Shown piece by piece: positions 9,695-35,888 of a DNA stretch of 40,880 nucleotides. Every line of letters begins with the position of its first letter. Within the stretch, counting starts at the first letter, position 1. Source of the DNA: Mogibacterium sp. (GTDB lineage: Bacteria > Bacillota > Clostridia > Peptostreptococcales > Anaerovoracaceae); contig JAFRGH010000062.1 of the NCBI GenBank assembly GCA_017433945.1, positions 1 through 40,880 of the forward strand. The letters are read 5' to 3'. A model generated the notes under the pieces. That model saw only the letters and a program-made list of their open reading frames with translations, was not told the DNA's origin and ran no database searches. Position numbers and translations under genes: made by a program.

Positions 9695-10249
9695 ATGCAC
9701 GCAGCAGATCTTGATGAAAATTTAATATTACTCATGGCCAACGGTGACGGCAATGCGTTCACTGAGTTCTATAATCAGACATCCAGCATAGTATACGGAT
9801 TTGCGCTCTCGATTTTAAGAAACAAACAGGATGCAGAAGACGTTATGCACGACGCATTCATCAAGGCGTATACGAGTGCTGTCACCTACAGACCGATGGG
9901 TAAGCCGATGGCCTGGATGCTCACGATAGTGAAGAATCTGTGCTATAACCGGATCCGTTCAGGAAGGATATTCGAAGATATAGACGAATATGAGGATGCG
10001 GCTGTAAGCGATGAACTGCAGGACACGGTAACAGACAAGGCCATATTGCAGCAGGCCTTGAAAATACTGGACGCAGAGGAGCGTCAGATAGTGACTCTCT
10101 ACTCGGTAACGGGGCTTAAGCACCGTGAGATAGCCGAGATTATGGAAATGCCGACAGGAACGGTGCTCTCCAAGTACAACAGGGCACTGGCCAAGATGAG
10201 AAAGGAACTTACCGGCGATGGAGGAAAAGGAAAGGGGGGAAGAAAATGA
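9695..10249 (+). CDS. ECF-type RNA polymerase sigma-70 family factor
   Basis: 184-aa ORF with a region 2-like segment (DAEDVMHDAFIKAY...MAWMLTIVKNLCYN) and a region 4 HTH (LKHREIAEIMEMPTGTVLSKYNRALAKMRKEL). The stop overlaps the next start (ATGA). Confidence 0.88.
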   Translation: MHAADLDENLILLMANGDGNAFTEFYNQTSSIVYGFALSILRNKQDAEDVMHDAFIKAYTSAVTYRPMGKPMAWMLTIVKNLCYNRIRSGRIFEDIDEYEDAAVSDELQDTVTDKAILQQALKILDAEERQIVTLYSVTGLKHREIAEIMEMPTGTVLSKYNRALAKMRKELTGDGGKGKGGRK

Positions 10250-11793
10250 CTTACAACAGAGACGAGATCACTAATGAAATCATTACAAAGTCTCTGGCGG
10301 ACGCCATTGAAGATTCCACCCCTGACATACTTAAGAGCCTCCGCGCAGAGCTTAATATAGACAGCAATGCTGTTAAGATGGCAAATGAAGGATCTGCTTC
10401 AGAGAGAGCTGCAGCTTACAAGCCTGTGAGGGCAAAGAACGCGGCAGCGCCTGAGAGGTCTGAACAGGAAGGAATTTCAGGCAGACAGGCTGCAAAGATG
10501 AGGTCAGTCGTATATAAGGCGGCCAGCTGCGCAGCAGCGCTGATAGTTCTTGCAGGCGGCGTATCGCTTGTCAACAGAACAGGTCCGGCATTCGCGGTAG
10601 TCGGGCTCGATGTCAATCCGGGCATTGAGATTACGATAGATAAGAATGAGAAAGTTATCTCAGCAGAGGCGGTCAATGAAGAGGGACAACATATCCTTTC
10701 GGATTTGAAAATTGAGAAATCCAACGTCAATTCAGCGTGCGACGAAGTAGTCGAGGCGATGATGGACGAAGGCTATCTCACCGACACATCCAATTCCGTT
10801 CTGCTCTCGGTCAGGGCTGATGATCCTGACAAGGGCAGGGAAATCGAAAAAGAGATTTCGGAAAACCTGAACGGGTTCCTGGAGGATTCCGATATCTCCC
10901 CGGCTATATTCGGCCAGTTTGTCGAAACGGACGACGAACTTAATGAGTTTGCAGGAACCCATGGAATCTCGATAGGCAAGGCGTGGCTGATACGCAAGCT
11001 CACGGATGAAGAAGATTTGAGCGTAACGTCGGATTCGCTGCTCGGACTGTCCACACAGGAACTTGTCCTACTCGGCCAGGACAGGAGCGTCAGTACCGGA
11101 ACCTCTTACGGAACCCCGAATACCAGTAAGTATGTCGGTACGGACAGCGCTTTGATAGCTGCTCTGGAGGCTGCAGGACTGAACAGGGAAGACGCACAGA
11201 ACGTTAAGGTCAAATTCAGCTGTGAGAACGGATCGATCGTATATTCAGTCGGTTTCGATGCGAATAGCTGCATTTACGGATTCAATGTTGATGCACTCAC
11301 CGGGATGGTGATGTTACATGACAGCGTGATCCCGGGTGTATCAGCCGAATCGCCTGCTGGGATCGGTCAGATGGCCGATGCGATCGATAGCTTGAATTTT
11401 AACTCATCAGGCCAGGATGCTCAGAACAATACTGAACATCAGAATACATCAGGAAACTCCGGGAACAGCGGTTCCGGAACAGAAAATGACAATAACGGAG
11501 CATCAAACCCGGGTGAGATCACGGGGGATGCGCAGGACATCGAAGATACAGATCCCGATGATAAACCGGGAGATATCAGCGGAGATGTTGAAGATATAGA
11601 TGATGAAACAGGCGATGTACCGGGCGAAAACGACAGTTCGGAGCAGGATGAACCTCAATCTGACATCGTCCCTGAGGTAAAAAAGGAAAGCGGTAATACT
11701 ACTGAAGCTTCAGATAAAACGGATTCTGCGGATACAAAAAAAGAATCTGAAGCAAAAACGCTAAATAAATCAGATAAAGAATCTGATTTATAA
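10246..11793 (+). CDS. Membrane anti-sigma factor with an extracytoplasmic PepSY-like domain and an acidic low-complexity tail
   Basis: 515-aa ORF translationally coupled to the sigma gene. It has a single TM helix (VVYKAASCAAALIVLAGGVSLV) and the segment DVNPGIEITIDKNEKVISAEAVNEEG typical of clostridial anti-sigma proteins. A PepSY-like stretch (ALIAALEAAGLNREDAQNVKVKF...YSVGF...GFNVDALTGMV) and a D/E/S/G-rich C-terminus follow. Confidence 0.75.
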   Translation: MTYNRDEITNEIITKSLADAIEDSTPDILKSLRAELNIDSNAVKMANEGSASERAAAYKPVRAKNAAAPERSEQEGISGRQAAKMRSVVYKAASCAAALIVLAGGVSLVNRTGPAFAVVGLDVNPGIEITIDKNEKVISAEAVNEEGQHILSDLKIEKSNVNSACDEVVEAMMDEGYLTDTSNSVLLSVRADDPDKGREIEKEISENLNGFLEDSDISPAIFGQFVETDDELNEFAGTHGISIGKAWLIRKLTDEEDLSVTSDSLLGLSTQELVLLGQDRSVSTGTSYGTPNTSKYVGTDSALIAALEAAGLNREDAQNVKVKFSCENGSIVYSVGFDANSCIYGFNVDALTGMVMLHDSVIPGVSAESPAGIGQMADAIDSLNFNSSGQDAQNNTEHQNTSGNSGNSGSGTENDNNGASNPGEITGDAQDIEDTDPDDKPGDISGDVEDIDDETGDVPGENDSSEQDEPQSDIVPEVKKESGNTTEASDKTDSADTKKESEAKTLNKSDKESDL

Positions 11794-13943: not shown

Positions 13944-14037
13944 AACACTTATCAGATTTTTCAACTGTATGATATGTGCGTATAGGCGAAATTGATAATA
14001 ACTCCGATTGAGAGTTAAGTACCTCTATGATAAACTA

Positions 14038-14063
14038 TGTGTGCTGCGGTCCCGCAGCACACA
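14038..14063 (+). terminator. GC-rich hairpin, either the terminator of the reductase gene or a 5' leader element of the riboswitch
   Basis: TGTGTGCTGCG g tc c CGCAGCACACA, an 11-bp stem with no T-tract. It lies 95 nt after the TAG stop and immediately 5' of riboswitch P1. Confidence 0.35.
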
Positions 14064-14065
14064 TC

Positions 14066-14279
14066 ATATCCGGTGCCGGGTCTTTGCCTCATGCTTAGAG
14101 GCGAAGGCAGGGTCAAAAGGGAAACAGGTGAGAATCCTGTACGATCGCGTCACTGTGACAGTGTAGTGTCAGCCATGATGTCACTGCAGCAGATATCCCT
14201 GACGGTCGCAAGACAGGGATGCAGGCTGCGGGAAGGCGGCTGCCACGTTGATGCTGGAGCCAGGAAACCTGCCGGATAT
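14066..14279 (+). promoter_or_regulatory. Cobalamin (B12) riboswitch aptamer
   Basis: P1 pairing ATATCCGG (14066-14073) with CCGGATAT (14272-14279). Conserved core AAAAGGGAAACAGGTGAGAATCCTGT...CGCGTCACTGTGA (14115-14158). B12 box GAGCCAGGAAACCTGCC (14257-14273). A platform of about 170 nt precedes the 14453 start. Confidence 0.9.
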
Positions 14280-14452
14280 AAGGGTACAGGCTAAGGGACT
14301 AGCCGGGCCACGCGGGATTGGCCGTACCGTAAACAGCATATAGTGTTGATTTATGGTGCCTTCTTTTCCATATGGGTCTTTCCGTAAGATCCGCAAGAAA
14401 TGAGGCGCTTTTTATTCCGTAATCATTTTAGTTTGAAAATGAGTATATCAGA

Positions 14453-15445
14453 ATGAAAAAGAAAATTTTGGTGCTTCTTCTCGGACTCTCGATGATCATG
14501 ATGTTTGCATTTGCGACCGGATGCAGCAAGCAGGAGTCAGAGCCTGAAGAGGCAGAAACAGAAGAAACCGCAGATGCAGAAGCAGAAGACGACGAAAACT
14601 ACGAGACAGGAGATGCATCATTGGACAACCCGAGAAACCAGGATGAGATCGGTGAAAACGAACTGCTTGTCGTAAGCTTCGGAACAAGCTTTAATGACAG
14701 CCGCCGCCTTACCATCGGCGCTGTTGAGCAGGCTATCGAAGATGCTGTAGGCGATACCTACAGTGTGCGCAGAGGCTTCACCGCGCAGATCATTATCGAT
14801 CACATAATGAAGAGAGATAAGGTAAAGATAGACAATGTCACAGAAGCTCTCGACAGAGCCGTAGACAACGGAGTAAAGACACTTGTCGTTCAGCCGACAC
14901 ACCTCATGAACGGACTTGAATATGACGAGCTCAAGGAGACACTTGCCGGATACGCTGATTCATTCGATAAAATCGCAGTAGGCGAACCGCTGCTGACATC
15001 GGACGATGATTTCAGCAGAGTTGCAGATGCCATGATCAACGCAACAAAGGACTATGACGACGGCGAGACGGCTATCGTATTTATGGGTCACGGTACAGAA
15101 GCAGAGTCCAACGCGATCTACGAAAAGATGCAGGGCGTAAGGGATGACAAGAGCATGACGAACTACTTCATCGGAACAGTTGAAGCGACTCCATCGCTCG
15201 AGGATGTCATGGCTGCAGTAGGAAAGGGTGAATACAAGAGAGTCATACTGAGACCTATGATGGTAGTTGCGGGTGACCTTGCAAACAACGACATGGCTTC
15301 ACCTGACGATCCTGAATCATGATATTCGCAGTTCAAAGAGGCCGGCTATGACGTAGAGTGCGTTCTTGAAGGCCTCGGACAGATACCGGCAGTTCAGAAG
15401 CTCTACGTTGAGCATGCTCAGGCTGCTATCGAATCTGTTAAGTAA
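14453..15445 (+). pseudogene. cbiK: Exported (lipobox) CbiK-like sirohydrochlorin cobaltochelatase homologue, interrupted by an in-frame TGA at 15320-15322 (or mis-sequenced)
   Basis: Signal peptide plus lipobox MKKKILVLLLGLSMIMMFAFATGC, then an acidic linker. CbiK-family blocks follow: LLVVSFGTSFND, VVQPTHLMNGLEYDEL, VFMGHGT, GTVEATP and MVVAGDLANNDMA. The frame continues after the TGA for 40 codons (YSQFKEAGYDVECVLEGLGQIPAVQKLYVEHAQAAIESVK, TAA at 15443-15445). This matches the CbiK C-terminus. Confidence 0.8.
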
Positions 15446-15532
15446 CGTCAGCGGGCGGAACATCTGCTTTTCAGATAGTTGACGGATAAGTGCTATGGGT
15501 AAATACAGATCAATATCGATGTATAAAATAAT

Positions 15533-16417
15533 ATGAATATTAAAAAAACTAAATCCATTACGATCCTGCTGATCCTGACGCTGCTGCTGACTCTATCTGC
15601 GTGCGGAGCTCCATCCGAAAGCGCGGAGCAGGAAGAGAGCAGTGACCGGGTCGCTTCGGCGGAGGAAATGACGGATGTCGATGAAGTCGGATATGAGGGC
15701 ATGACAGCTGTCGCAGCTGATCAGCTGAACGATGGCAGCTATGATATAAGTGTTGAATCCAGCTCTTCTATGTTCAATATCGAGGCCTGCAGGCTCACGG
15801 TCAAAGACGGTAAAATGACTGCTGTCATGACTATGGGCGGTACAGGCTACAGATACATAACGATGGCATCTGCTGAAGAGGCGGCAAAGGCTGACGAATC
15901 GGAATATATTTATCCTGAAGAGGATGCGGAGGGGCGCCATACATATACCGTCTCGGTAGAGGCGCTGGATAAGGCGGTCAAATGCGCTGCGTTCAGCGAT
16001 AAAAAGGAAAAATGGTATGACAGGACGCTGGTATTCAGTTCATCAGCTCTGCCGCTCAGCGCATTCAGAGAAGGCGTGCTGACGACTCCGGCTGATCTTG
16101 ACATAGAAGACGGAGATCACGAGATCGGAGTAACTCTTTCCGGCGGTTCGGGAAGAGCGGGCGTGGACTCGCCTGCGCGTATCCGCAAGTCCGGAGACAG
16201 CTACGTAGCAGAGATCACATGGAGCAGTCCGCATTATGACTACATGATAGTAGACGGACAAAAGTATCTGCCGGTCAACGAAGACGGTAACTCTGTGTTT
16301 GAGATACCGGTCCTGTTCTTTGACAGGCCGATGCCTGTGATCGCAGATACAACTGCTATGAGTGAGCCTCACGAGATCGAATACACATTGCTGTTTGACT
16401 CGGGGTCGCTCAAATAA
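15533..16417 (+). CDS. Lipoprotein with two tandem homologous beta-sandwich (NEAT-like?) domains
   Basis: Signal peptide plus lipobox ...LLLTLSACG. There is an internal duplication: DGSYDISVESSSSMFNIEACRLTVKDGKMTAVMTM...WYDRTLVFSS aligns with DGDHEIGVTLSGGSGRAGVDSPARIRKSGDSYVAEITW...HEIEYTLLFDS. Confidence 0.8.
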   Translation: MNIKKTKSITILLILTLLLTLSACGAPSESAEQEESSDRVASAEEMTDVDEVGYEGMTAVAADQLNDGSYDISVESSSSMFNIEACRLTVKDGKMTAVMTMGGTGYRYITMASAEEAAKADESEYIYPEEDAEGRHTYTVSVEALDKAVKCAAFSDKKEKWYDRTLVFSSSALPLSAFREGVLTTPADLDIEDGDHEIGVTLSGGSGRAGVDSPARIRKSGDSYVAEITWSSPHYDYMIVDGQKYLPVNEDGNSVFEIPVLFFDRPMPVIADTTAMSEPHEIEYTLLFDSGSLK

Positions 16418-16428
16418 ACAAAAAAGAT

Positions 16429-16470
16429 ATGCAGCAGAGACTCTGCCTGTATAAGGGGTCTCTGCTGCAT
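16429..16470 (+). terminator. Intra-operon hairpin (attenuator or RNA-stability element)
   Basis: 13-bp perfect stem ATGCAGCAGAGAC/GTCTCTGCTGCAT with a 16-nt loop, 12 nt after the lipoprotein TAA. It is followed by TGTGTTAATAAA, a weak U-tract. Confidence 0.5.
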
Positions 16471-16491
16471 TGTGTTAATAAACATAATAAA

Positions 16492-17817
16492 ATGATAAGA
16501 AACGCAATATTATACAAAGAGAGACGCCGTAAAGCACTTTACAAAGCATTTCACAAAACATTTCATAAAACCCCAGGCTGTTCTGCTGCGCGATCAGAGT
16601 CTGCGTCAATCGTCACATCAGCTTTTGACCAAAAACCTGTAGCTGTACTGACAGCAGTCATTATTACTGTCTGCCTGTTCTTTACAGGATGCAGCAGCAT
16701 GGGAGATGCGAAAAACACAGACAACACCGACAATACAGGAAATGCTTCTCAAAGCGCGCTGATCGAAGAGCATCACACGGGAAGCATGGAGCTCGATCAC
16801 GCGACGCAGTTTCATGCTGATTATTATGATGACGGCATCACCATGGTCACAGTAGAGGATGGCCTTGATTACATCCTGGCGCCGGATCCTGATGATCTGC
16901 CGGACTGGCTGACAGAAGCGGAAACAGAGGGGCGTACTGTTATCGGCGTTCCCGCAGCCCCTGTCTATATGGCTGCATCCTCCGGCATGGATCTGATAGC
17001 TGCCATTGGCGCGCTGGATGCCGTATCCATGACCAGCACGGCCGCGAAGGACTGGGCGATCCCCGAGATAAGGGAGCTGGTCGAATCAGATGCCATACAC
17101 TATATCGGCAAATACAGGGCGCCTGATTATGAGGCTCTTGTCGAAGAGGAGACCGGTCTCGCGATAGAGTCTACGATGATATATCACAGCCCGCAGGTCA
17201 AGGAGGCAATAGAGGAGCTCGGGATACCGGTGCTTGTCGAGAGATCCAGCTATGAACAAGATGCTCTCGGACGTCTGGAAGGGATAAAGCTGTACGGCCT
17301 GCTTTTCGGTAAAGAGCAGGCGGCGGAGTCATATTATAAAAAAGCAGCCTCCCGAATCGCTTCAGTTGATACTGACTCAATCAGGGAGACGCCTTCGGTC
17401 GCGTTCTTTTCCGTAAACTCAAACGGCTCGGTAGTTGTGAGGAAACCCGGCGATTATGTAACGGGAATGATCGAAACGGCCGGAGGCAGATACGCTCTTG
17501 ACGGCATCACGGATGAAGAGGACAATGCCCTTTCAACTATGAATATGCAGATGGAGGCGTTTTATGACATGGCCGTCGACGTCGATATACTGATATACAA
17601 CAGCGCGATCGAATCCGACCTGAACACTGTCTCTGAGCTAACAGCGCTTGCGCCGCAGTTTGAGGATTTCAAGGCGGTCAAAGAGGGCGATGTCTGGTGC
17701 ACCAACAAGAGCGTCTTCCAGAAAACGACGGGCGCAGCGGACATGATAGTCGAAATGAACCGCATTTTTGCCGGCGCCGGTGATGGCGGTATGGAATATT
17801 TCCACAAACTGAGATAG
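16492..17817 (+). CDS. ABC importer substrate-binding lipoprotein (FecB/BtuF-type periplasmic binding protein family); start uncertain
   Basis: Lipobox VIITVCLFFTGCSS, followed by a type-III binding-protein-like body (e.g. RTVIGVPAAPVYMAASSGMDLI..., ADVDILIYNS...). The only in-frame ATGs upstream of the signal peptide are 16492 and 16429, and 16429 lies inside the hairpin. Confidence 0.7.
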   Translation: MIRNAILYKERRRKALYKAFHKTFHKTPGCSAARSESASIVTSAFDQKPVAVLTAVIITVCLFFTGCSSMGDAKNTDNTDNTGNASQSALIEEHHTGSMELDHATQFHADYYDDGITMVTVEDGLDYILAPDPDDLPDWLTEAETEGRTVIGVPAAPVYMAASSGMDLIAAIGALDAVSMTSTAAKDWAIPEIRELVESDAIHYIGKYRAPDYEALVEEETGLAIESTMIYHSPQVKEAIEELGIPVLVERSSYEQDALGRLEGIKLYGLLFGKEQAAESYYKKAASRIASVDTDSIRETPSVAFFSVNSNGSVVVRKPGDYVTGMIETAGGRYALDGITDEEDNALSTMNMQMEAFYDMAVDVDILIYNSAIESDLNTVSELTALAPQFEDFKAVKEGDVWCTNKSVFQKTTGAADMIVEMNRIFAGAGDGGMEYFHKLR

Positions 17818-17827
17818 AATCTTACAG

Positions 17828-18832
17828 ATGAACAACAAAAGGATAGCGTTTTGTTATACCGCGCTGGGCATCCTTCTCCTGGTGCTGATCATCATGAATA
17901 TGCTGATGGGAAGCTCCTCTATGACTGCAGGGGATGCTTTTCGCATACTCTTTTCACATGATACTGTCTCCAGATACGGCAGGATAGTCTGGGATATACG
18001 CATGCCGAGGATAATCGCTGCGGCTCTGCTCGGCGGAGCGCTGGCAGTCTCAGGTTTTTTGCTGCAGACTTTTTTTTCGAATCCAATTGCCGGCCCGTAT
18101 ATACTCGGGATATCTTCAGGCGCGAAGCTGGTCGTTGCCTGCGCTATGGTATATGCTCTGACTCACGGCATCATGCTGCATTCTTTTGTCATGATCATAG
18201 CCGCGTTTATCGGCTCTCTTGCCGTTACTGCTGTTATACTTTTGATCTCGGGAAAAGTCAGGAGCATGTCCGTTCTCATAGTGTGCGGCGTTATGGTCGG
18301 ATACATCTGCTCGGCTGTGACTGAGTTCCTGATCACCTTTGCCGACGATTCCAATATTGTCAATCTGCACAACTGGTCCATGGGCAGCTTTTCAGCTGTG
18401 AGCTGGGAGAATATCAGAGTAATCGCCCCTGTAGTTGCGATAACTGTGATATTGTCCTTTCTTTTATCTAAACCGATGAACGCTATTCAGATGGGAGAGC
18501 ATTACGCCGTCAGCGTAGGCGTGAACATCAGGGCGTTCAGGACGGGGCTGATAATGCTGTCGAGCATTCTCTCGGCTACCGTGACGGCTTTTGCCGGACC
18601 GATCTCTTTTGTAGGAATTGCAGCGCCTCACCTCATCAGGTCGATCACCGACACGTCAAGACCGATAGTCATGATACCGCAGTGCTTCCTCGGAGGATCA
18701 GTGTTCTGTCTGCTCTGCGATCTGCTCGCGAGAAATCTCTTCGCGCCGACCGAGATGAGCATCAGCTCCATGACAGCCGTATTCGGCGCTCCTGTAGTGA
18801 TCGCGATGCTGATAGGAAGGAAGGCGAGATGA
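17828..18832 (+). CDS. ABC importer permease, FecCD/BtuC family
   Basis: 334-aa polytopic membrane protein with family-typical segments (IRMPRIIAAALLGGALAVSG..LLQTFFSNPIAGPYILGISSGA, GPISFVGIAAPHLIR). Confidence 0.88.
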   Translation: MNNKRIAFCYTALGILLLVLIIMNMLMGSSSMTAGDAFRILFSHDTVSRYGRIVWDIRMPRIIAAALLGGALAVSGFLLQTFFSNPIAGPYILGISSGAKLVVACAMVYALTHGIMLHSFVMIIAAFIGSLAVTAVILLISGKVRSMSVLIVCGVMVGYICSAVTEFLITFADDSNIVNLHNWSMGSFSAVSWENIRVIAPVVAITVILSFLLSKPMNAIQMGEHYAVSVGVNIRAFRTGLIMLSSILSATVTAFAGPISFVGIAAPHLIRSITDTSRPIVMIPQCFLGGSVFCLLCDLLARNLFAPTEMSISSMTAVFGAPVVIAMLIGRKAR

Positions 18833-19689
18833 AAAGCGATGAGATAAGAAGAGGCTCGACCGGAAGCGGCGGCTCAAAAGAAGTCATCAGAACGGAGAGC
18901 CTCGATTCAGGCTATGGCCGTAAGGTGATAGTCGCCGGCGCGGAGCTGAGTGTGATGCCCGGAGAGATCGCGGTCCTGATAGGACCGAATGGAGCCGGCA
19001 AATCGACCGTTCTTAAGACCATCGCGGGACAGCTCGAAACGATAGCCGGTACGGTATTCATAGGCGGCAGGGACAGGACTGAGTATGCATCTGCTGATAT
19101 AGCGAAGAAACAGGCCGTAATGCTGACTGAAAGGCAGCCTGCCGAAAAGATGAGCTGCATGGAAGTGGTCTCTCTCGGCAGATATCCCTATACCGGGCGT
19201 TTTGGCATACTGTCCCGGGAAGACCGCAGGATAGTCCGCGAGACCATGGAACTGGTGCATATAAGCGAGCTGGCAGAGAGGGATTATGATCAGATCAGCG
19301 ACGGACAGAGGCAGAGAGTGCTGCTTGCAAGGGCGATCTGTCAGGAGCCTGAGATAATGCTGCTGGATGAACCGACATCATACCTCGACATAAGGCACAA
19401 GCTCGAGTTTCTGGATCTGCTCAGGGACCTGGCGCGGCATCGCGGCATCGCCGTCATAATGTCCATGCATGAGCTGGAGCTCGCGCATCTGACAGCCGAC
19501 AGCGTTATCTGCATATCTGCTGCAGGCAGAGTGGAAAAGGCAGGCCCGCCGGAAGAGGTGTTTACGGACGAACTGATAAGCAGGCTGTACGGACTGGAGG
19601 ACGGAAGGCTGAGGCAGGTATATTCGGGATTCGCGGAGAGCATCGGTAAAATGACGGATAACATCGGTAAAAAAACGGAGAGCCGGTAA
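18829..19689 (+). CDS. ABC importer ATP-binding protein (BtuD/FepC-like)
   Basis: The ATG at 18829 overlaps the permease stop (ATGA). Walker [10 protein letters not shown], signature SDGQRQRV and Walker [12 protein letters not shown] are present. The longer ORF-track start (18682) would overlap the permease in another frame. Confidence 0.88.
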
Positions 19690-19696
19690 AGAAACA

Positions 19697-21235
19697 ATGT
19701 CTAAGGTAATAATGATACAGGGCACCATGTCCAACGCGGGCAAAAGCCTGCTTGCCGCGGGACTTTGCCGCATATTCAGGCAGGACGGATACAGGACAGC
19801 CCCTTTCAAATCTCAGAATATGGCTCTAAACTCCTTTGTTACAAGGGAGGGGCTTGAGATGGGAAGAGCTCAGGTCGTTCAGGCTGAGGCGGCCGGGATA
19901 GAGCCGCTCGTCTGCATGAACCCTGTGCTGCTCAAGCCGACTGATGACGAGGGCTCGCAGGTGATAGTGAACGGCAGGCCCATCGGCAATATGAAGGCCA
20001 GGGATTATTTCAAGTATAAAACACAGCTCATTCCTGTTATTAAGGATGCGTTCCACCGTCTCGAGGAGATGGCGGACATCATTGTGATAGAGGGAGCGGG
20101 CTCGCCCGCGGAGATCAACCTCAGGGAGAACGATATAGTAAATATGGGACTTGCGGAAATGCTGGACGCGCCTGTGCTGTTGGTCGGGGATATAGACCGG
20201 GGAGGAGTTTTCGCACAGCTTCTCGGTACCATCATGCTCCTCGAGGGAAGCGAGCGTGAGCGCATCAAAGGCCTCGTAATAAACAAGTTCAGAGGCGATA
20301 AATCGCTGCTGGACAGCGGGATAGAAATGCTCGAGGACAGAGGCGGCATTCCGGTAGCCGGCGTCGTGCCGTATATGGATATAAAGGTCGAGGATGAGGA
20401 TTCTCTTTCGGAACGTCTAGCATATTCAGCGGGTCGCGCAGCGTACAGCGGGGAAACAGCTGTCGACATAGCCGTGATCAGGCTGCCGAAGATATCTAAT
20501 TTTTCAGATATGGATGTGTTTGAGCAATTTCCGGATGTATCTGTGAGATATGCAGGAAGAGCCGCGGAGCTTGGAGAGCCGGATATGATCATTATCCCTG
20601 GTTCGAAAAGCACTATAGCCGATCTCAGATGGCTGAGAGAGTCTGGCTTTGAAACGAGCATTACAGAGTGCTGCAGGTGCGGCATACCTGTATTCGGTAT
20701 CTGCGGAGGCTACCAGATGATGGGTGAAGAGGTCTCGGATCCTGACGGCGTCGAGGGAGGAGGCTGCATCAAAGGCCTCGGCTTGCTTCCGGTATCTACT
20801 GTGCTCGCAGGCGATAAAAAGACGAAGCAGTTCCGCGGCAGCTTTGAGGATGCGGACGGATTGTTCAGCGGTCTTAGAGGCATGGACATCGAAGGATATG
20901 AGATCCATATGGGGCGTACCGGACTGAGCGTACGCGCTGATCTGAGCGCCGGATCTGCATCGGATACGCCGCCAAAGCATTTCAGCTCAGACGATACAGG
21001 ATTCTGCCGGGATAATATATACGGCACTTATGTACACGGCATCTTCGACCGCGGCGAGATCGCGCGGGAGATAGTCAGTGCTCTCGCTGAGCGAAAGGGC
21101 GTGAGGATAAGGGACGCAGGAGCCATGGATCACAGGGAATTCAAGGAAAGAGAATATGACAGACTTGCGGATATCCTGAGAGCTTCGCTCGATATGGAAC
21201 GCATATACGATATGCTGAGGGAGGCTGCGATTTGA
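19697..21235 (+). CDS. cobQ: Cobyric acid synthase
   Basis: 512-aa ORF with an N-terminal CobQ/CbiP ATP-binding domain ([24 protein letters not shown]) and a C-terminal GATase domain ([12 protein letters not shown]). Confidence 0.92.
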
Positions 21236-22809
21236 TAAACATCGACCCTTTTAACAAAGACAGATATGACGAGATAAGGCAGCGCTGGGACAGGGTTGCA
21301 AAGCCGCTGAACAGCCTTGGACGCTTTGAGGAGATGACGGCGCGCATTGGCGCGGCGCAGGACTCTGCCGATGTGGACATAAGGAAGCGCGCAGTGATAA
21401 TTATGTGTGCCGATAACGGCATCGTAGCAGAGGGCGTCAGCCAGTCGGGCCAGGATGTCACGGCTGCAGTCGCGGCATGGATGGGCCGCGGCGAGAGCTC
21501 TGTATGCAAAATAGCGAAGAAATGCCGGACGGATACCATTGCGGTCGATGTCGGCATCAACATGGAAGGAAGCCCCGCGGGAGTCATAGACCGCAAGGTC
21601 ATGCGCGGGACGAGAGATTTTGCGCTTGAACCCGCGATGACCGAGGATGAATGCATGCAGGCGATAGATGCGGGCATAGACATTGTCTGCGAGTGCAGCG
21701 CGAGGGGCTACAGGCTGCTTGCCACGGGAGAAATGGGCATAGGCAACACGACCACGAGCTCTGCGCTGGCCTCGGCCCTTCTCGGAATGGATGTGTCTGT
21801 CATGACCGGGAGAGGGGCCGGCCTGAGCAACGCAGGCCTCAAAAATAAAATGCGTGTGATACAGGATGCCCTGAACAGATACTGTCCCGAGGATGATCTT
21901 GATATCGAAAGCCCGGAATACACGTCCCTGATGCTTTCCTGCGTCGGGGGACTGGATATAGCCGGACTTGCAGGGGTATTTATCGGCGGAGCAATGAACC
22001 ATATACCGGTGATCATAGACGGGTTTATCAGCGCGGTGGCAGCTCTCGCAGCAGAGCGGCTGGTTCCGGGCTGCCGCAATTATATGATAGCTTCGCATAT
22101 CGGCAGGGAACCCGGCATGAAATATATACTGGACACTCTGGGCCTCGAGCCTGTGCTGGATGCCGGACTGGCGCTCGGAGAGGGGACAGGTGCGGTCATG
22201 CTTATGCCGCTTCTCGATATGGCTCTTGCACTCTATTCGGACGGACTTTTTTTTGAGGAAACCGCAGTGGAACAGTATCATCATTTTGATGAAAACAATA
22301 CCATCCTTATAATCGGATATCCCGACAGCGGCAAATCGGAGCTTGCGGAGAAGACTGTACTTGAGATCTCAGGTCCGGGAGAGAGGATATATCTCGCGAC
22401 CATGATCCCTTACGGAGAAGAAGGCAGCGCAAGGATAGAAAAGCACCGCCGTATGAGGGCGGGAAAGGGCTTTGACACTCTTGAAGCGCCGCTTGATGTT
22501 TACGACAGCCTGACCGAATACATGAAAGGCGTCGAAGGCGAGCCGGGGGACAAGACTGTTCTGCTTGAATGCGTGTCCAACCTGACTGCTAATGAACTCT
22601 TTGAGAGACACAGTGACCCCGGGACTGCGGCGGACAAGATATGCGATGACATAGAAAAGATATCAAAAATGGTCCGCAACCTTATCATTGTCACCAACCA
22701 TTTTGATAAGCAGAGCGGATTTGATGAAGAGACTGCCGCTTATGCCTCAATACTTGATATAATTAACGACAGGCTCAGCAATATTGCTGACAGAGTGATA
22801 AAGCTGTGA
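21232..22809 (+). CDS. cobT: Fusion of nicotinate-nucleotide--dimethylbenzimidazole phosphoribosyltransferase (CobT) with adenosylcobinamide kinase/guanylyltransferase (CobU)
   Basis: The TTG start overlaps the cobQ stop. CobT motifs GEMGIGNTT and LGEGTGA lie in aa 1-350. From about nt 22300 there is a CobU-like domain with P-loop GYPDSGKS and RIEKHRRMR (the guanylyl-His region). Confidence 0.88.
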
Positions 22810-22816
22810 GACAGAT

Positions 22817-23623
22817 ATGAGACTATTAAGGACTGTTGCCGTAACATTTGCGCTGTATTCGAGGATACCGATGCCGCACTTTGAGTGGCGAGATGAGGAT
22901 ATGACATACAGCATAGCTTTGTTCCCGTGGGTAGGAGCCGTGATCGGACTTGTCTTTGTCTGCGTGTACAGAGCCGGAATCCTGCTGTCTGTGCCGCTGA
23001 CAGCTGTCTGTCTGCTTATGACAGCTGTTCCTGTTGTCATTACAGGCGGCTTTCATATCGATGGCATCATGGATGTCTCGGACGCCCTCTCATCATACGG
23101 AAGCAGGGAGGATAAGCTAAGGATATTGAAGGATCCGCATATAGGGGCCTTCGCTGTAATAAGGCTCTGTGTGTGCGGTCTGGTCTATATGGCGTCTCTG
23201 ATCACGCTTGCAGGCTCTGCAAAAATTTCAGCTGCGGGCAGTGCATACGAAGCGGTGCTGATACTGGCGGCGGGATTCTTTACGGCAAGGGCGTTCAGCG
23301 CTCTCGGTGTCCTGAACCTCAGGTCGGCAAAAAATGAAGGCATGCTGTTTTATGAAGCCTCGTGCGCCGGAAGCGGCAGAAAAGCAAATAATATACTCTG
23401 CTCGCTATGGATATGCGCAGTCAGCATTCTGATCATATATATCGATCCTGTAATGGGGATCGCGGAGATGCTTACTGCGGCTGCTTGCTTTGCATGGTAT
23501 AAATATAAGTGCTATAAGGAATTCGGAGGCATAACGGGAGATACCGCCGGCTGGTTCGTTACGGTATGCGAGACCGCTCTTGCAGCTGCTGCGGCCTTGG
23601 TATGCCTCTCTCGCGGTTTATGA
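22817..23623 (+). CDS. cobS: Adenosylcobinamide-GDP ribazoletransferase (cobalamin synthase)
   Basis: 268-aa polytopic membrane protein. The N-terminal FALYSRIPMP...FPWVGA and GGFHIDGIMD motifs are typical of CobS. Confidence 0.88.
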   Translation: MRLLRTVAVTFALYSRIPMPHFEWRDEDMTYSIALFPWVGAVIGLVFVCVYRAGILLSVPLTAVCLLMTAVPVVITGGFHIDGIMDVSDALSSYGSREDKLRILKDPHIGAFAVIRLCVCGLVYMASLITLAGSAKISAAGSAYEAVLILAAGFFTARAFSALGVLNLRSAKNEGMLFYEASCAGSGRKANNILCSLWICAVSILIIYIDPVMGIAEMLTAAACFAWYKYKCYKEFGGITGDTAGWFVTVCETALAAAAALVCLSRGL

Positions 23624-23688
23624 GTCCCCATTGACTCATCAGTCTCGCCGTCTCAAATGACTTACAGGTAAAAGGAGTGCGAAATAAA

Positions 23689-24330
23689 ATGAAGATGAAG
23701 CTTACGCTTATAAGGCATGGTCAGACACAGGGAAATATTGAGCGCAGATTCTCAGGATGCAGGACCGATGAGCCTCTTACGGATGCGGGAAGAACTGCTC
23801 TCTGCGCAGTCGGCGGATCAGGCGGCAGCGGAGGCATAGGCGAAGGCAGCATGGTATTCGTCAGCCCCATGATACGCGCTCGTGAGACTGCCGAAATACT
23901 GTTTCCCGGCCTCGAAAAGACCGTGATCGAAGACCTTAAGGAGATGGATTTCGGAATGCTTGAGCCTCACAATCATGAGGAGCTGGACGGAGATCCGGAT
24001 TATCAGGCATGGATAGACAGCGGAGGACTGGCTGAGATCCCGGGCGGCGAGAGCATAGCTTCATTTTCACAAAGAGCTATGAGGGGACTTGCGGCGGCCG
24101 TAAGACAGGCTGCATCGTCCGCGTCAAAAGAGATATATGCGGTTGCTCACGGCGGAACGATAATGGCGATAATGAGCAGTCTTACAGGCAGAGCTTATTA
24201 TGATTTTATGTCGGATAACGGATGCGGATATACAGTTGAGCTGGAGGTAGATGATGCAGGAAATATCGTTGCTGCAGGCGCATATGATCGCTTTTGCGGC
24301 GGGATACGTGATGGATCTTGTGATAGGTGA
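23689..24330 (+). CDS. cobC: Alpha-ribazole phosphatase (histidine phosphatase family)
   Basis: RHG motif LIRHGQTQGN. SD AAAGGAG (23671-23677) favours the ATG at 23689 over the GTG at 23677. The second catalytic region is AHGGTIMA. The 3' end overlaps cbiB. Confidence 0.8.
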   Translation: MKMKLTLIRHGQTQGNIERRFSGCRTDEPLTDAGRTALCAVGGSGGSGGIGEGSMVFVSPMIRARETAEILFPGLEKTVIEDLKEMDFGMLEPHNHEELDGDPDYQAWIDSGGLAEIPGGESIASFSQRAMRGLAAAVRQAASSASKEIYAVAHGGTIMAIMSSLTGRAYYDFMSDNGCGYTVELEVDDAGNIVAAGAYDRFCGGIRDGSCDR

Positions 24331-25258
24331 TCCTCATTCTCTGCCTCATCCAGTAAGATGGATAGGATCTCTGATAGCAGTTCTGGACAAAAGCCTGCTC
24401 GGAGAGCTGCCGGATGAAGGCAGCCGCGACCCGGACAGGGAGAGAAGGCGCGGCGCCGTACTTGTGATCATCGTGATCGCTGCCACCCTGCTGATTTCCG
24501 CAGCGGTAATGACGACTGCATATCACATTTCCCCAGCTGCGGGCATCATCGCCGAAGCCGTGCTGACATGCTACACTCTTGCGGCAGCGAGCCTTCGCAA
24601 GGAGAGCATGAAGGTGTATGAGGAGCTGAGCAAAGGTGAACTCGAGGGAGCTCGGAGGGCTGTTTCCATGATCGTCGGAAGAGATACGGCGGCGCTCGAC
24701 GAAAAAGGCGTTACGAAGGCTGCTGTGGAGACAGTAGCAGAGAATTTTTCGGATGGCGTGATCGCTCCCATGCTGTATAATGCATTAGGCGGGCCGGTCG
24801 CCGGTCTTGTTTACAAGGCTGTAAACACCATGGATTCCATGATAGGCTACAAAAATGACCGCTACCGGTGGTTCGGGACGGCTGCGGCAAGGCTCGACGA
24901 CGTCTGCAGCTTCATACCGGCCAGGCTCAGCGCCCTGCTGCTGATCGCAGCGAGTGCGTTCGCAGGGAGTGATTATGATCCGGCAAATGCACTCAGGATA
25001 TGGAGGCGCGACAGGCATAATCACAAGAGCCCGAACGCGGCCCAGACGGAGAGTGCGTGCGCCGGCGCGCTCGGACTGCAGCTTGCGGGCGATGCAAGCT
25101 ATTTTGGCAGGGTAGTACATAAGCCGACTATAGGCGATGATACGAGAGCTATAGAAGCTTACGATATAGTAAGGGTAAACAGGCTGATGATAATGTCGTC
25201 AGCAATCGGGGAATTGTTATGTCTTCTGGTTATATTTACGATGAATACAATAAGATGA
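24251..25258 (+). CDS. cbiB: Adenosylcobinamide-phosphate synthase
   Basis: Membrane protein with the MDLVIGDPHSLPHPVRWIG signature. SD GGAGG (24243-24247) precedes ATGs at 24251 and 24254; an alternative ATG lies at 24284. It overlaps the cobC 3' end by up to 80 nt. Confidence 0.88.
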   Translation: MMQEISLLQAHMIAFAAGYVMDLVIGDPHSLPHPVRWIGSLIAVLDKSLLGELPDEGSRDPDRERRRGAVLVIIVIAATLLISAAVMTTAYHISPAAGIIAEAVLTCYTLAAASLRKESMKVYEELSKGELEGARRAVSMIVGRDTAALDEKGVTKAAVETVAENFSDGVIAPMLYNALGGPVAGLVYKAVNTMDSMIGYKNDRYRWFGTAAARLDDVCSFIPARLSALLLIAASAFAGSDYDPANALRIWRRDRHNHKSPNAAQTESACAGALGLQLAGDASYFGRVVHKPTIGDDTRAIEAYDIVRVNRLMIMSSAIGELLCLLVIFTMNTIR

Positions 25259-25320
25259 GCGAAGAGGCCCGGGCGAAGGCTGAGGGTAGGACCATAGTAC
25301 GAAAAGAGGAGCCGGATACT

Positions 25321-26358
25321 ATGTCCGGACGGGTCGGACACGGGGGAGACGTCTACAGAAACAGGGTCAGGCTTGATTTTTCGGTCAGTCTCAACCCGAT
25401 GCCGCTTCCGCAGAGCATAATGGATGCGGCATTGATCGGCCTCAGCGAGATGCATCAGTATCCGGATCCCGTTCAGCAAAAGCTGAGAGAGGGGATCGCC
25501 TCATTCGAAAACGCAGCTGTCCGAAATGTGATATGCGCAAGCGGCGCGTCCGAACTGCTTATGGCAGTGTGTCACGCATTCAGGCCGCGAAGAGCGCTCG
25601 TTACAGCCCCATGCTATGCGGGCTATGAGAGGGCTCTTCGGGCTGTGGGAGCGGAAATGATCGAGTATACACTTGACGAGGCGAACGGTTTCAGACTGGA
25701 TGACGGACTGCTGTACACTCTGCCCGGTGCGAACATAGACATGATCATCCTGGCGGATCCCAATAATCCTGACGGCAGACTCATGGACGCGGGACTCAAA
25801 AAGAGGATATCGGATGTGTGCGATGGCATGGGGATCACTCTTGTTATAGATGAATGCTTCCTGCCGCTGACCGTAAGGGGACTGACCAGAGAGCCTATAC
25901 GGGACCGCGCCCTGCATCTCAGAGCTTTTACCAAGACTTTTGCCATGCCCGGCATCAGGATAGGATATATGCTCTCGGCCGATACACAAAAGCTTTCAAA
26001 GATATCCGGTCATCTGCCGGAATGGAATGTATCGAGGATCGCCGAAAAAGCCGGTGAAGCCGCGGCGGAGGTGATGCGCAATACTTCGTATCTGCAGAAT
26101 TCAGTCGCGTATATAAGCTCCGAAAAGCAGCGGCTGACACAGGGACTCGCCATGCTCGGCATCAAGGTGTACGAAAGCGATGCCAATTATATACTGTTCA
26201 AAAGCAGGGCGGGACTGTATCAGGATCTGCTCTCCAAGGGGATAATGATAAGGCGCTGCTCGGATTACAGCGGTCTTGACGAGCATTTTTACCGGATCGC
26301 AGTCAGGACGCGTGATGATAACAATGTGCTGCTCAGGACTCTTAAGAGCCTGCTGTGA
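25321..26358 (+). CDS. cobD: Threonine-phosphate decarboxylase (class I/II aminotransferase fold)
   Basis: The ATG at 25321 is preceded by AAGAGGAG and gives the canonical N-terminus MSGRVGHGGDVY...DFSVSLNP. A PLP-Lys region (FTKTFAMPGIRIGY) is present. Upstream in-frame ATGs at 25219 and 25255 are possible but lack an SD. Confidence 0.82.
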   Translation: MSGRVGHGGDVYRNRVRLDFSVSLNPMPLPQSIMDAALIGLSEMHQYPDPVQQKLREGIASFENAAVRNVICASGASELLMAVCHAFRPRRALVTAPCYAGYERALRAVGAEMIEYTLDEANGFRLDDGLLYTLPGANIDMIILADPNNPDGRLMDAGLKKRISDVCDGMGITLVIDECFLPLTVRGLTREPIRDRALHLRAFTKTFAMPGIRIGYMLSADTQKLSKISGHLPEWNVSRIAEKAGEAAAEVMRNTSYLQNSVAYISSEKQRLTQGLAMLGIKVYESDANYILFKSRAGLYQDLLSKGIMIRRCSDYSGLDEHFYRIAVRTRDDNNVLLRTLKSLL

Positions 26359-26385
26359 TGAGACGATGGGGTCGCTTCGAAAATT

Positions 26386-27009
26386 ATGAAACCTGAAGAT
26401 ATAGAAAAGAAAAGCTTTGCGATAATAGCGGATGAGCTTGCGGAGATGGGTATTGTCCTCGACCCGGTCAATGATCCGGTCATCAGGAGAGCGATACACA
26501 CGACCGCTGATTTTGAGTATGCAAAGACTCTTGTTTTTTCGGAGAATGCTGTTGAAAAGGCAAGGGATCTCATACGCGGCGGAGCCGATATAGTGACAGA
26601 TACCAATATGGCGCTCACGGGCATAAACAAAAAACGCCTTGCAGCCTGCGGAGGCTCTGTTCGATGCTATATGGCTGATGCTGATGTTGCCGCAGAGGCA
26701 AAGAAGCTTGGTGTGACCAGGGCGTCGGTAAGCATGGAGCACGCCGCTTCGGATATAGATGCATCCGGCAAAAAGACGATATTTGCGGTCGGAAATGCTC
26801 CGACTGCTCTCATCGCGCTCAGAGAGATGTACGACAGGGGCATTTTTGTGCCTGATTTTGTCATAGGCGTTCCGGTAGGCTTCGTCAATGTGGTCGAATC
26901 CAAGGAGCTTATACTCGATACTGAGATTCCGCATATAGTGAACCGCGGACGCAAGGGCGGCAGCAATGTAGCGGCTGCGATAGTCAATGCTCTTTTGTAT
27001 GGGCTTTAG
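26386..27009 (+). CDS. cbiC: Cobalt-precorrin-8 methylmutase
   Basis: 207-aa ORF with CbiC/CobH-typical segments: IEKKSFAIIADEL, RAIHTTADFEY, FAVGNAPTAL and GRKGGSNVAAAIVNAL. Confidence 0.9.
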   Translation: MKPEDIEKKSFAIIADELAEMGIVLDPVNDPVIRRAIHTTADFEYAKTLVFSENAVEKARDLIRGGADIVTDTNMALTGINKKRLAACGGSVRCYMADADVAAEAKKLGVTRASVSMEHAASDIDASGKKTIFAVGNAPTALIALREMYDRGIFVPDFVIGVPVGFVNVVESKELILDTEIPHIVNRGRKGGSNVAAAIVNALLYGL

Positions 27010-27023
27010 CGGGAGATAAGCGG

Positions 27024-28223
27024 ATGAGGGAGCTGAGAAACGGTTTTACTACCGGAAGCTGCGCAGCCGCGGCGGCAAAGGCCGCCTGCCTGATGCTGCT
27101 GACCGGAAACAAAAGGGATTCGATCTCGATAGTCACGCCAAAGGGCCTGATCTTTGACACAGAGATACTGGACAGCTCTGTGTCTGAATCCTCGGCAAAG
27201 TGCGCTGTGAGAAAGGACGGAGGGGATGACCCCGATGTGACGACCGGCGCTCTTGTCTATGCAGAGGTCGCTTATGCGGAGCCGGCTTGCGCGGAGCCGT
27301 CTGAGCAGTCGGGACCGCATATAGTCATATTCGGAGGAGAGGGAGTAGGCAGGGTAACAAGGCCGGGGCTGGATCAGCCGCCCGGAGAATACGCGATCAA
27401 TTCCGTTCCCCGCCGCATGATAAGAGATGAGCTGCTCGAGGTATGCGGCTTGTGTGACTACAGAGGCAGCCTTGCGGTCACAATATCAGTGCCGGGAGGC
27501 GCCGAAATAGCAAAAAAGACTTTCAACCCGAGGCTCGGGATCGAGGGAGGCATATCGATCATAGGCACTTCCGGCGTGGTCGAGCCGATGAGCGAGCAGG
27601 CCATAATAGATACGATCAAAGTGGAGTTGAGGCAAAAGAGAGCTGAAGGGAACAGCACAGCCTTCATTTCACCGGGCAATTACGGACTGGATCATATGAG
27701 AGACAGCTATGGGATCGACCTGGATCAAAGCGTCAAATGCAGCAATTTTATAGGTGATACCATAGATATGGTCGTAAGCATGGGCTTTGATAATATGCTG
27801 CTCACCGGACACGCAGGCAAGCTGGTCAAGATAGCCGGCGGCATAATGAATACGCATTCGCGAATGGCTGACTGCAGGATGGAGATCATCGCAGCAGCTG
27901 CCGCTCGGGAGGGCGCCGATACGGCATTTCTGAACAGCATACTCGACTGCCTTACGACTGACGAGGCCTTTTCGCTCCTGGATGAGCGCGGCATGCTGCA
28001 TGCGGTATGCGAGAGGATAATGGAGCGAATTGCAGCCAATCTCGAAAAGAGGGCGGCAAGGGCCGCAGGAACGGATATAACAGATGCGGGACTGAGCGGA
28101 GCAGACTGCTGCAGGAGAGGCAGCAGCAAGGCTCTGCGCATCGAATGCATAATGTACACAAAGGAGCACGGACAGCTTGCCGCAACGAAAGGCGCGGCTC
28201 AGCTGCTCGCAGAGGTAAAATAA
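27024..28223 (+). CDS. cbiD: Cobalt-precorrin-5B (C1)-methyltransferase
   Basis: 399-aa ORF with the N-terminal LRNGFTTGSCAAAAAKAA signature, DDPDVTTGA, GISIIGTSGVVEPMS and GHAGKLVKIAGGIMNTHS. Confidence 0.9.
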   Translation: MRELRNGFTTGSCAAAAAKAACLMLLTGNKRDSISIVTPKGLIFDTEILDSSVSESSAKCAVRKDGGDDPDVTTGALVYAEVAYAEPACAEPSEQSGPHIVIFGGEGVGRVTRPGLDQPPGEYAINSVPRRMIRDELLEVCGLCDYRGSLAVTISVPGGAEIAKKTFNPRLGIEGGISIIGTSGVVEPMSEQAIIDTIKVELRQKRAEGNSTAFISPGNYGLDHMRDSYGIDLDQSVKCSNFIGDTIDMVVSMGFDNMLLTGHAGKLVKIAGGIMNTHSRMADCRMEIIAAAAAREGADTAFLNSILDCLTTDEAFSLLDERGMLHAVCERIMERIAANLEKRAARAAGTDITDAGLSGADCCRRGSSKALRIECIMYTKEHGQLAATKGAAQLLAEVK

Positions 28224-29009: not shown

Positions 29010-29014
29010 CAACA

Positions 29015-30022: not shown

Positions 30023-30039
30023 GGAAAGGCATAATAAGC

Positions 30040-34570: not shown

Positions 34571-34805
34571 TTCGCACAGATTCTTTGAAAACAGGGATTG
34601 CAGGTATTATCCGTGCCACGAGGGAATAGATGATATCAATTGCCTGTTCTGCTACTGTCATATGTACGGATCCGGCAATTGCCCGGGGGAACCGAAATAC
34701 ATCACAAAAGGGGACAGGACCGTCAAGGTCTGCACCGGCTGCACGTTTCCTCACAGACCGGAGAACTACGACAAGGTGATAGAATTTCTCCGTCTGAACA
34801 AGTAA
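34563..34805 (+). CDS. Cysteine-rich small protein (CxYYPCH-type metal-binding domain) associated with B12 clusters
   Basis: 80-aa ORF overlapping the cbiA stop by 8 nt. It has 9 Cys and several His in motifs: CRYYPCH, CLFCYCHMY, GNCPG and CTGCTFPH. Confidence 0.75.
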   Translation: MDNSHRFFENRDCRYYPCHEGIDDINCLFCYCHMYGSGNCPGEPKYITKGDRTVKVCTGCTFPHRPENYDKVIEFLRLNK

Positions 34806-34869
34806 CAAACGGACTCTTTTGCTTCATTTTTCAATCACTGAGAGCTCCGGGAAAGGATATCGATTTATA

Positions 34870-35868: not shown

Positions 35869-35888
35869 GCGAAAACGGGTGATCGATA

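Follow-up and report, generated by a model that had tools for sequence, protein, structure and literature searches.

Organization of the locus

We analyzed a 40,880-nucleotide stretch of Mogibacterium sp. DNA (contig JAFRGH010000062.1 of assembly GCA_017433945.1, forward strand), hereafter the window, in which a cobalamin riboswitch precedes a module of five genes encoding two exported lipoproteins, one related to the chelatase CbiK and the other to NEAT-domain proteins, and an ATP-binding cassette (ABC) importer with its substrate-binding protein (SBP). An original prediction, made from the DNA letters, had proposed that the two lipoproteins are extracellular receptors for corrinoids or other tetrapyrroles that feed the importer. 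The main features of the locus are as follows.

14061-14290, plus strand: cobalamin riboswitch aptamer, RF00174 (Rfam covariance model, 88.5 bits, E = 1.1e-20)
14324-14359, plus strand: intrinsic-terminator-like hairpin of -17.2 kcal/mol, with U-tract TTCTTTTC at 14361-14368 (RNA folding)
14453-15447, plus strand: gene of an exported CbiK-family lipoprotein with the class II chelatase fold (Pfam, signal peptide, alignments)
15533-16417, plus strand: gene of a 294-aa lipoprotein with two NEAT-fold domains at about residues 56-178 and 179-294 (hhalign, AlphaFold2, Pfam)
16492-17817, plus strand: gene of a lipoprotein SBP, Peripla_BP_2, cluster A or class III type, lipobox FFTGC (Pfam, alignments)
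17828-18832, plus strand: gene of a FecCD-family permease (Pfam; best NCBIfam match BtuC, below its cut-off)
18829-19689, plus strand: gene of an ABC ATPase (Pfam ABC_tran)
19697-39073, plus strand: contiguous cobalamin biosynthesis genes (Pfam and NCBIfam annotation)

The riboswitch, recognized as canonical from the outset, matches the full Rfam model (positions 1-189) far above the gathering score of 31.5, and the Rfam scan detected neither a second riboswitch nor any other Rfam family in the whole 40.9-kb window. The leader had been described as having no obvious terminator, and this part of the original prediction did not hold. The hairpin downstream of the aptamer has a 17-bp stem that is interrupted and contains a bulge, and together with its U-tract (14324-14368) it is the probable expression platform. 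Such a bulged stem escapes a simple terminator scan, and was found by folding and by a purpose-built scan with controls. A hairpin of -10 kcal/mol or lower directly before a T-run was present in 59 of 70 leaders of the family, compared with 9 of 70 shuffled sequences and 8 of 67 coding controls. Since this frequency lies far above the controls, we take transcription termination to be the regulatory mode of the family, and predict that it depends on the ligand.

The first gene of the module encodes, as had been proposed, an exported CbiK homologue, which starts with the lipoprotein signal peptide MKKKILVLLLGLSMIMMFAFATGC and the lipobox FATGC. The protein matches Pfam CbiK (PF06180) with 196 bits against a gathering score of 26.2, just positions 3-222 of the 262 in the profile preceding an in-frame stop that is considered below, and it misses the cut-off of the NCBIfam CbiK equivalog NF047852 (160 vs 400 bits). 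Its matches in PDB are CbiK (1qgo), FetB (9b86) and a periplasmic CbiK (2xvx). A lipobox is found in 69 of 79 CbiK-like relatives, the remainder having Sec-type signal peptides or being truncated. The tetrapyrrole cleft and the two catalytic histidines are conserved in the CbiK-fold protein of this family: both metal-binding histidines are kept in 79/79 members, and the Glu is likewise conserved in all exported members. The two histidines correspond to His145 and His207 of Salmonella CbiK, His207 being the one in its AGDH motif.

The 294-aa product of the second gene starts with the lipoprotein signal peptide MNIKKTKSITILLILTLLLTLSAC and the predicted lipobox LSAC, whose cysteine (Cys24) is at least 90% conserved. 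The internal duplication noticed earlier is also recovered, residues 56-178 aligning with residues 179-294 at an hhalign probability of 97.4% (E = 1.1e-11). The sole Pfam signal of the protein is NEAT (PF05031) at residues 81-152, scoring 23.7 bits, below the threshold of 32.8, and no well-characterized family unconnected with tetrapyrroles was hit. Pfam NEAT is matched individually by 31 of 47 relatives (E < 0.01; best 1.6e-9), and a three-domain relative (P0094) passes the threshold with 55 bits. The NEAT fold is an eight-stranded immunoglobulin-like beta-sandwich of about 120 residues. An AlphaFold2 model of the 294-aa protein, built from a 47-sequence alignment, has a mean pLDDT of 86.5, and all 13 of its Foldseek matches in PDB at E < 0.001 are NEAT proteins. 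The two-domain proteins IsdB and IsdH match over the full length of the model, and Hbp2-N2, IsdX1 and IsdX2-N5 match as single domains (target TM 0.65-0.68, probability 1.0). Sequence searches of PDB with the NEAT-like profile and with P0094 returned no meaningful match, so that in PDB the relationship is visible by fold comparison only. Given the PDB fold matches of the model, the Pfam matches of the 31 relatives and the three-domain relative above threshold, we consider the predicted NEAT fold to be a secure assignment, although the window protein misses the Pfam cut-off. The CbiK and NEAT assignments of the original prediction therefore hold at the levels of both profile searches and folds.

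The canonical heme-binding motif of NEAT domains, YxxxY, lies on strand 8, and its first Tyr coordinates the heme iron. We confirmed the sequence of the IsdA NEAT domain, and of its Y166A and H83A variants, from PDB. In IsdA the YxxxY motif is Y166/Y170, and the counterparts of its strand-8 motif NYNHRYTTHLEF are KEKWYDRTLVF (domain 1) and HEIEY-TLLF (domain 2). The motif had been noted as lacking from both domains (WYDRT and HEIEY), correctly so. Read by motif register alone (aligning the domains one by one to the lone IsdA sequence with hhalign gave no information), it would be replaced by K158xxxY162 in domain 1 and H280xxxY284 in domain 2, a Lys or a His taking the place of the iron-binding Tyr. 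The second Tyr of the motif is invariant (Y162, Y284). An S-x-M-F motif had been thought common to the two domains; it is present in domain 1 as part of an invariant SSS-x-MF lip, but domain 2 has GGSG (GGSGRA) at the same place.

The three importer components were predicted correctly, and the window carries each of the generic Pfam domains FecCD, ABC_tran and Peripla_BP_2. The SBP gene most likely starts at the ATG at 16492 and not at 16429, because a 1-nt indel in two of four close relatives breaks the frame upstream, and the lipobox FFTGC lies in frame downstream. A lipobox is found in 59 of 73 SBPs of the family. The best NCBIfam match of the SBP is IsdE, at 23 bits, with no match to a BtuF model, and its sequence alone finds no match in PDB. 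Against the NCBIfam equivalogs, the permease scores 208.8 for BtuC (cut-off 334) and the ATPase 112 for BtuD (cut-off 281). Many ATPases of the family (364-371 aa) have an extra C-terminal PF27219 (MJ0874) domain, as at L085 6150-7250, L088 9511-10626 and L089 8503-9597 (here and below, L and P numbers are our handles for loci and proteins); the window ATPase (286 aa) is without it.

Recurrence of the module and its proposed function

Relatives of the 294-aa protein were found in at least 562 species-level genomes in a scan of one genome per species. Their hosts are gut and rumen Clostridia, including Lachnospiraceae, Oscillospiraceae, Ruminococcus, Butyricicoccus, Mogibacterium, Peptostreptococcaceae and others. 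A profile search of a 50%-clustered library returned 2,445 clusters, with E below 1e-30 for 895, and more than 7,600 relatives were among the scored candidates in a 90%-clustered database, where the top 120 shown were all named 'hypothetical protein'. Counts of gene neighborhoods given here are based on 80 loci fetched out of these species. Nearly all 80 have the genes in the order CbiK-like, NEAT-like, SBP, FecCD, ATPase. In all 11 loci scanned with Rfam, a cobalamin riboswitch lies immediately upstream of the CbiK-like gene. With an nhmmer profile, one is found directly upstream at 69 of the 80 loci, or 69 of the 75 that are testable, contig ends cutting into the other five. The predicted linkage of this gene trio to cobalamin riboswitches in related genomes is thus borne out. 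The six negative loci remained negative when rescanned with Rfam; in three of them the CbiK-like/NEAT-like pair is embedded in a cbi operon whose head lies beyond the fetched DNA.

Variants of the module architecture join its components in a single protein. A CbiK-NEAT-like fusion of 598 aa (P0154) stands behind a riboswitch and before SBP-FecCD-ATPase-cbiA-cbiC; NEAT-like-Peripla_BP_2 fusions of 640-760 aa occur as P0123, P0124, P0129 and P0190, and in L046 one open frame spans the NEAT-like protein and the SBP. These independent gene fusions are evidence that the CbiK-like, NEAT-like and SBP components are functionally linked. Other loci vary in the number of domains. In L087 a tandem double CbiK (631 aa; 838-2733) accompanies a triple NEAT-like protein directly upstream of SBP-FecCD-ATPase. 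An 11-repeat NEAT-like protein of 1965 aa (L088, 1268-7165) lies behind a riboswitch and before SBP-FecCD-ATPase with no CbiK partner, and a 7-repeat protein of 1473 aa (L089, 1797-6218) lies directly upstream of the same three genes. L089 is also without a detectable cobalamin riboswitch or upstream cbi genes.

The module continues into cob/cbi genes (cobQ, cobT, cobU, cobS or cbi) in 20 of 67 scored loci, cobT/cobU being the continuing genes in three of the 20. Unrelated genes follow it in ten other loci with an annotated next gene, so that the module there is a self-contained riboswitch operon. The importer genes of the window run unbroken and on the same strand into the cob genes, and the riboswitch therefore heads an uptake module fused to the de novo B12 pathway. 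The gene order is cbiP/cobQ, cobT-cobU, cobS, cobC, cbiB, cobD, cbiC, cbiD, methylase, cbiG, methylase, cbiJ fusion, cbiA, hemB, hemC-cobA-hemD and methylase. Among these, cobT-cobU (21232-22809) and hemC-cobA-hemD (35889-38363) are fused genes, and cbiJ, a tetrapyrrole methylase and about 270 further residues form one gene (30837-33041). No cytoplasmic cbiK/cbiX, sirC, hemA, hemL or cobalt transporter was seen in this 20-kb cluster; the gene of the exported protein is the sole one of CbiK type. At L024 and L044 this gene comes directly after cbiJ, where Salmonella has its cbiK.

We favor, with somewhat better than even confidence, an interpretation of the locus as a B12-repressed operon that captures corrinoids outside a Gram-positive cell by means of an Isd-like relay. 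The riboswitch, terminator, export signals, folds, gene order and fusions are taken as shown; both the identity of the ligand, for which cobamides or precursors such as cobinamide would be candidates, and the direction of hand-over are inferred. When cobalamin is plentiful, it would bind the leader aptamer and the terminator hairpin would stop transcription; when it is scarce, the operon would be read through, in this organism together with the cob biosynthesis genes behind it. The three lipoproteins (CbiK-fold, two-NEAT-domain and class III SBP) would be tethered to the outer face of the membrane, where corrinoids outside the cell would be bound by the NEAT-fold protein and, probably, in the tetrapyrrole cleft of its CbiK-fold partner. 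By analogy with Isd, the ligand would then move from the CbiK-like and NEAT-like binders to the SBP, from which the FecCD/ATPase type II importer would take it up. The original idea of extracellular corrinoid or tetrapyrrole receptors feeding an importer is in this form supported by the profile searches, the folds, the riboswitch linkage and the fusions; what it did not foresee is the damage to the CbiK-like gene of the window itself.

The position of the module before or inside complete cbi/cob operons, in the window and at several other loci, would also suit a producer-side role, in which the surface proteins retain or re-capture corrinoids or intermediates released by the cell itself. The module, however, is also a stand-alone uptake operon at the ten loci where unrelated genes follow it, and the mechanism would be the same as in the capture of external corrinoids, differing only in the source of the ligand. 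We consider this role distinctly unlikely.

State of the window copy and neighboring features

The CbiK-like open reading frame had been taken as whole in the original prediction, which overlooked an in-frame TGA at 15320-15322. This codon ends the frame, and the conserved C-terminus runs on in frame to 15447. The position (Trp290) is Trp in 79/79 relatives and in Salmonella CbiK, P. gingivalis FetB and the periplasmic CbiK of D. vulgaris. Reading of the TGA as selenocysteine or by an alternative genetic code was rejected, as the homologues have Trp (TGG) there. By our reading TGA also ends other genes of the window, for example the FecCD gene at 18832, as judged from 4-nt gene overlaps and not from the bases themselves. 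Fourteen codons ahead of the stop, at 15278-15280, Leu replaces the invariant second metal-binding histidine (H276L), so that the window copy lacks one of the two histidines that characterize a class II chelatase and that the rest of the family retains.

In four metagenome contigs with 99.8% identity to the window, the CbiK-like gene is intact and codes for 330 aa. The first gene had further been reported to be without a Shine-Dalgarno sequence. This is true of the window, where the site reads AATGAG, but not beyond it: the loss is due to a G→T change at 14440, and the four contigs read AAGGAG, 9 nt before the ATG, which identifies it as a private mutation. A private W→G change at 17281 affects the EW motif of the SBP, where Trp is near-invariant among relatives. 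In total, 24 of the 30 differences from the four contigs lie in 14440-18985 (binomial p = 7e-7), at a substitution density about tenfold that of the flanks; nearly all of them are private to the window, with about 7 transitions vs 13 transversions. The riboswitch sequence is unchanged.

The CbiK-like gene of the window is probably a defective or mis-sequenced copy, and if the sequence is accurate it is inactivated. The private cluster as a whole could be the result of decay, of an unusual mutational event or of sequence error. For this window only, we see an even chance that the module is a decaying, non-functional copy, or its sequence erroneous, and that nothing operates here. The clustering of the differences is in line with this view, as is the removal of the Shine-Dalgarno sequence, of the invariant His276 and Trp290 and of the conserved Trp of the SBP, whereas the NEAT-like, permease and ATPase genes are still open and the riboswitch is intact. 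As to decay in particular, the tenfold density and the richness in transversions fit an error or an unusual event at least equally well.

Further features of the leader and of the intergenic regions are the following.

14008-14036, plus strand: promoter-like site TTGAGA, 17-nt spacer, TG-TAAACT (weak evidence; such sites are no more numerous in the region than in shuffles)
14037-14064, strand not given: perfect 12-bp palindrome ATGTGTGCTGCGG/CCGCAGCACACAT at the 5' edge of the leader
14360-14405, plus strand: second hairpin, followed by TTTTTATT at 14409-14416, an alternative or additional terminator (RNA folding)
14438-14443, plus strand: degenerate Shine-Dalgarno sequence of the CbiK-like gene
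16431-16468, plus strand: intercistronic hairpin of 14 bp, -30.7 kcal/mol, z -6.15, without a U-run (folding)

The palindrome has the promoter-like site on one side and the first bases of the riboswitch on the other. The intercistronic hairpin is perfect and lies between the stop of the NEAT-like gene and the start of the SBP gene; it may set unequal expression of surface proteins and transporter, or stabilize the upstream mRNA. In most other loci these two genes abut or overlap, so the hairpin looks clade-specific. The NEAT-like gene has no recognizable Shine-Dalgarno sequence in 15447-15533 (gtataaaataatATG), a stretch that is identical in close relatives. Upstream of the module, at 9695-11793, is a sigma-70/RsgI-like anti-sigma pair; the RsgI-like gene has five substitutions relative to close strains within 54 nt (10421-10474).

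Relation to known systems and biological meaning

The Isd, IsdX and Hbp heme relays of Staphylococcus, Bacillus anthracis and Listeria come closest to the module in its NEAT-like component and in overall logic. In both, NEAT-fold surface proteins, often in tandem or in multiple copies, are encoded beside a class III SBP lipoprotein, a FecCD permease and an ATPase, and the folds match directly. The module differs in being under a cobalamin riboswitch and not under iron control, in the lipobox anchoring of its proteins, in the exchange of YxxxY for KxxxY and HxxxY in the window protein, which also falls below the Pfam NEAT threshold, and in having an exported CbiK-like partner. The genes annotated in the module and its flanks include neither an IsdG/I-like heme-degrading gene nor a sortase gene, and sortase signals were likewise not seen.

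This likeness bears on a second explanation, namely that the module is an ordinary Isd-type system for heme or porphyrin uptake, its riboswitch link being incidental or reflecting cross-regulation of tetrapyrrole pools. Such a role would account for the NEAT fold and for the IsdE-like affinities of the SBP (the IsdE model, Lmo2184), and exported CbiK homologues do bind heme (9b86 is named 'Heme-binding protein FetB'; PMC12094164). It is at odds with the recurrence of the riboswitch in most testable loci across many families and in architectural variants, with the co-operonic cob genes, with the loss, by sequence register, of the iron-coordinating Tyr from both domains, and with the lack of annotated heme-degrading enzymes and of visible sortase signals. 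We regard heme uptake as very unlikely.

For the CbiK-like component, the closest system is the iht operon of Porphyromonas gingivalis, in which a coenzyme-B12 riboswitch precedes IhtA, a BtuB homologue, the CbiK-like lipoprotein IhtB/FetB and an ABC system (PMC3764172, PMC12094164). The two share the riboswitch-led organization, the exported CbiK-fold lipoprotein, the SBP lipoprotein, the FecCD permease and the ATPase, and FetB (9b86) aligns over its full length with the CbiK-like protein, both catalytic histidines being conserved. P. gingivalis is Gram-negative, and its IhtABCDE system has a TonB-dependent BtuB-like receptor in place of the NEAT-like protein; the module can be viewed as the Gram-positive counterpart. 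The literature reads iht as an iron/heme system (PMC3764172, PMC12094164), and describes FetB as a chelatase that in vitro can load a porphyrin analogue with Co(II) or Mn(II) (PMC13065792). Another exported class II chelatase with conserved active-site histidines is CbiK-P of Desulfovibrio vulgaris (2xvx), which in contrast is soluble in the periplasm of a Gram-negative cell and has no NEAT partner. CbiK-P reportedly binds heme, as Lobo et al. are said to have found in 2008.

A third explanation for the module is cobalt acquisition. The exported chelatase would bind Co2+ or load an extracellular tetrapyrrole with it, and the NEAT-like protein and the Isd-type importer would bring the cobalt chelate in for B12 synthesis. 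B12 riboswitches are generally known to control cobalt transporters in many cases, and none is visible among the cob genes of the window. Intact B12, on the other hand, is as a standard taken up by type II FecCD importers with class III SBPs. The conservation of both metal-binding histidines and the Glu in all exported members agrees with a metal-handling role, as do the Co/Mn chelatase activity of FetB, a solved exported homologue (PMC13065792), the presence of the CbiK-like and NEAT-like genes inside cbi operons in L019, L020, L024 and L044, and the ability of the IsdA NEAT domain to hold Co-protoporphyrin (PDB 3qzp). Opposed to it are the modules of L046 and L087, linked only to nucleotide-loop/salvage genes (cobT/cobU/cobS), the ten loci with a stand-alone operon, and the fact that the operon encodes no enzyme that would release cobalt from porphyrin. 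Altogether we find cobalt acquisition unlikely. Marginally less likely still is a variant in which the exported CbiK-like protein is a working surface chelatase, inserting Co2+ into an extracellular tetrapyrrole or a metal-free corrinoid, with the NEAT-fold protein handing the product to the importer.

The closest functional analogues of the proposed corrinoid capture are BtuG, BtuH, BtuJ and BtuK of Bacteroides, surface lipoproteins under riboswitch control that trap cobamides and hand them on to a transporter (PMC6143338, PMC13616437). They would do the same job with folds unrelated to those of the window lipoproteins, in neither of which Pfam matches BtuG/BtuH/BtuJ-type domains (e.g. DUF4465) at E up to 0.01, and they deliver to the outer-membrane receptor BtuB, which Gram-positives lack. 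With BtuFCD of E. coli the importer shares the type II ABC architecture and the best NCBIfam match of its permease (BtuC), but it misses every equivalog cut-off, and its SBP has no detectable sequence similarity to solved BtuF. The arrangement had been called uncharacterized in Gram-positives. We found no published description of the module and no literature linking NEAT domains with cobalamin, and according to a review of September 2026 the capture of cobamides outside the cell by Gram-positive Firmicutes 'remains entirely uncharacterized' (PMC13616437); what was missed is the Gram-negative precedent of iht.

Several observations weigh against corrinoid capture as the role of the module. The host of the window appears to make B12 de novo, so that uptake is not obviously needed, and its module carries disabling changes. 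NEAT domains are, to our knowledge, known only to bind heme or hemoglobin. The closest solved relative of the SBP profile is Lmo2184 (E = 7e-8), which we take to be the IsdE-like SBP of the Listeria NEAT locus, the other match being one unnamed binding protein, and BtuF is absent among the matches of this profile to solved structures at E up to 1; with affinities to IsdE and Lmo2184 and none to BtuF, the ancestry of the SBP points to heme systems. The two matches do not fix its specificity, however, and class III SBP folds do not distinguish between ligands. Three loci (L032, L043 and L046) are without the riboswitch and without upstream cbi genes. Finally, the conserved histidines of the CbiK-like family (79/79), together with the chelatase activity of FetB (PMC13065792), suggest catalysis over simple binding.

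In the gut and rumen, communities are shaped by competition for cofactors of the B12 type, and surface machinery for their capture is known only for Bacteroidota. The module described here is a concrete and testable candidate for extracellular cobamide capture in Gram-positive bacteria. It would be a re-deployment, under B12 control, of a NEAT-type relay and an exported CbiK, both of known kinds. Should the surface protein prove to be a working chelatase, NEAT domains with a non-heme cobalt-tetrapyrrole ligand would exist, and extracellular metalation would be a route by which Gram-positive gut bacteria obtain cobalt or corrinoid. Corrinoid binding by the NEAT-fold protein, the reading that we favor, would mean that this fold is not specific for heme and that an Isd-type relay has been adapted to another tetrapyrrole. 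It would also suggest that the exported CbiK proteins, long a puzzle (IhtB/FetB, CbiK-P), are part of the biology of B12 and not of that of iron.

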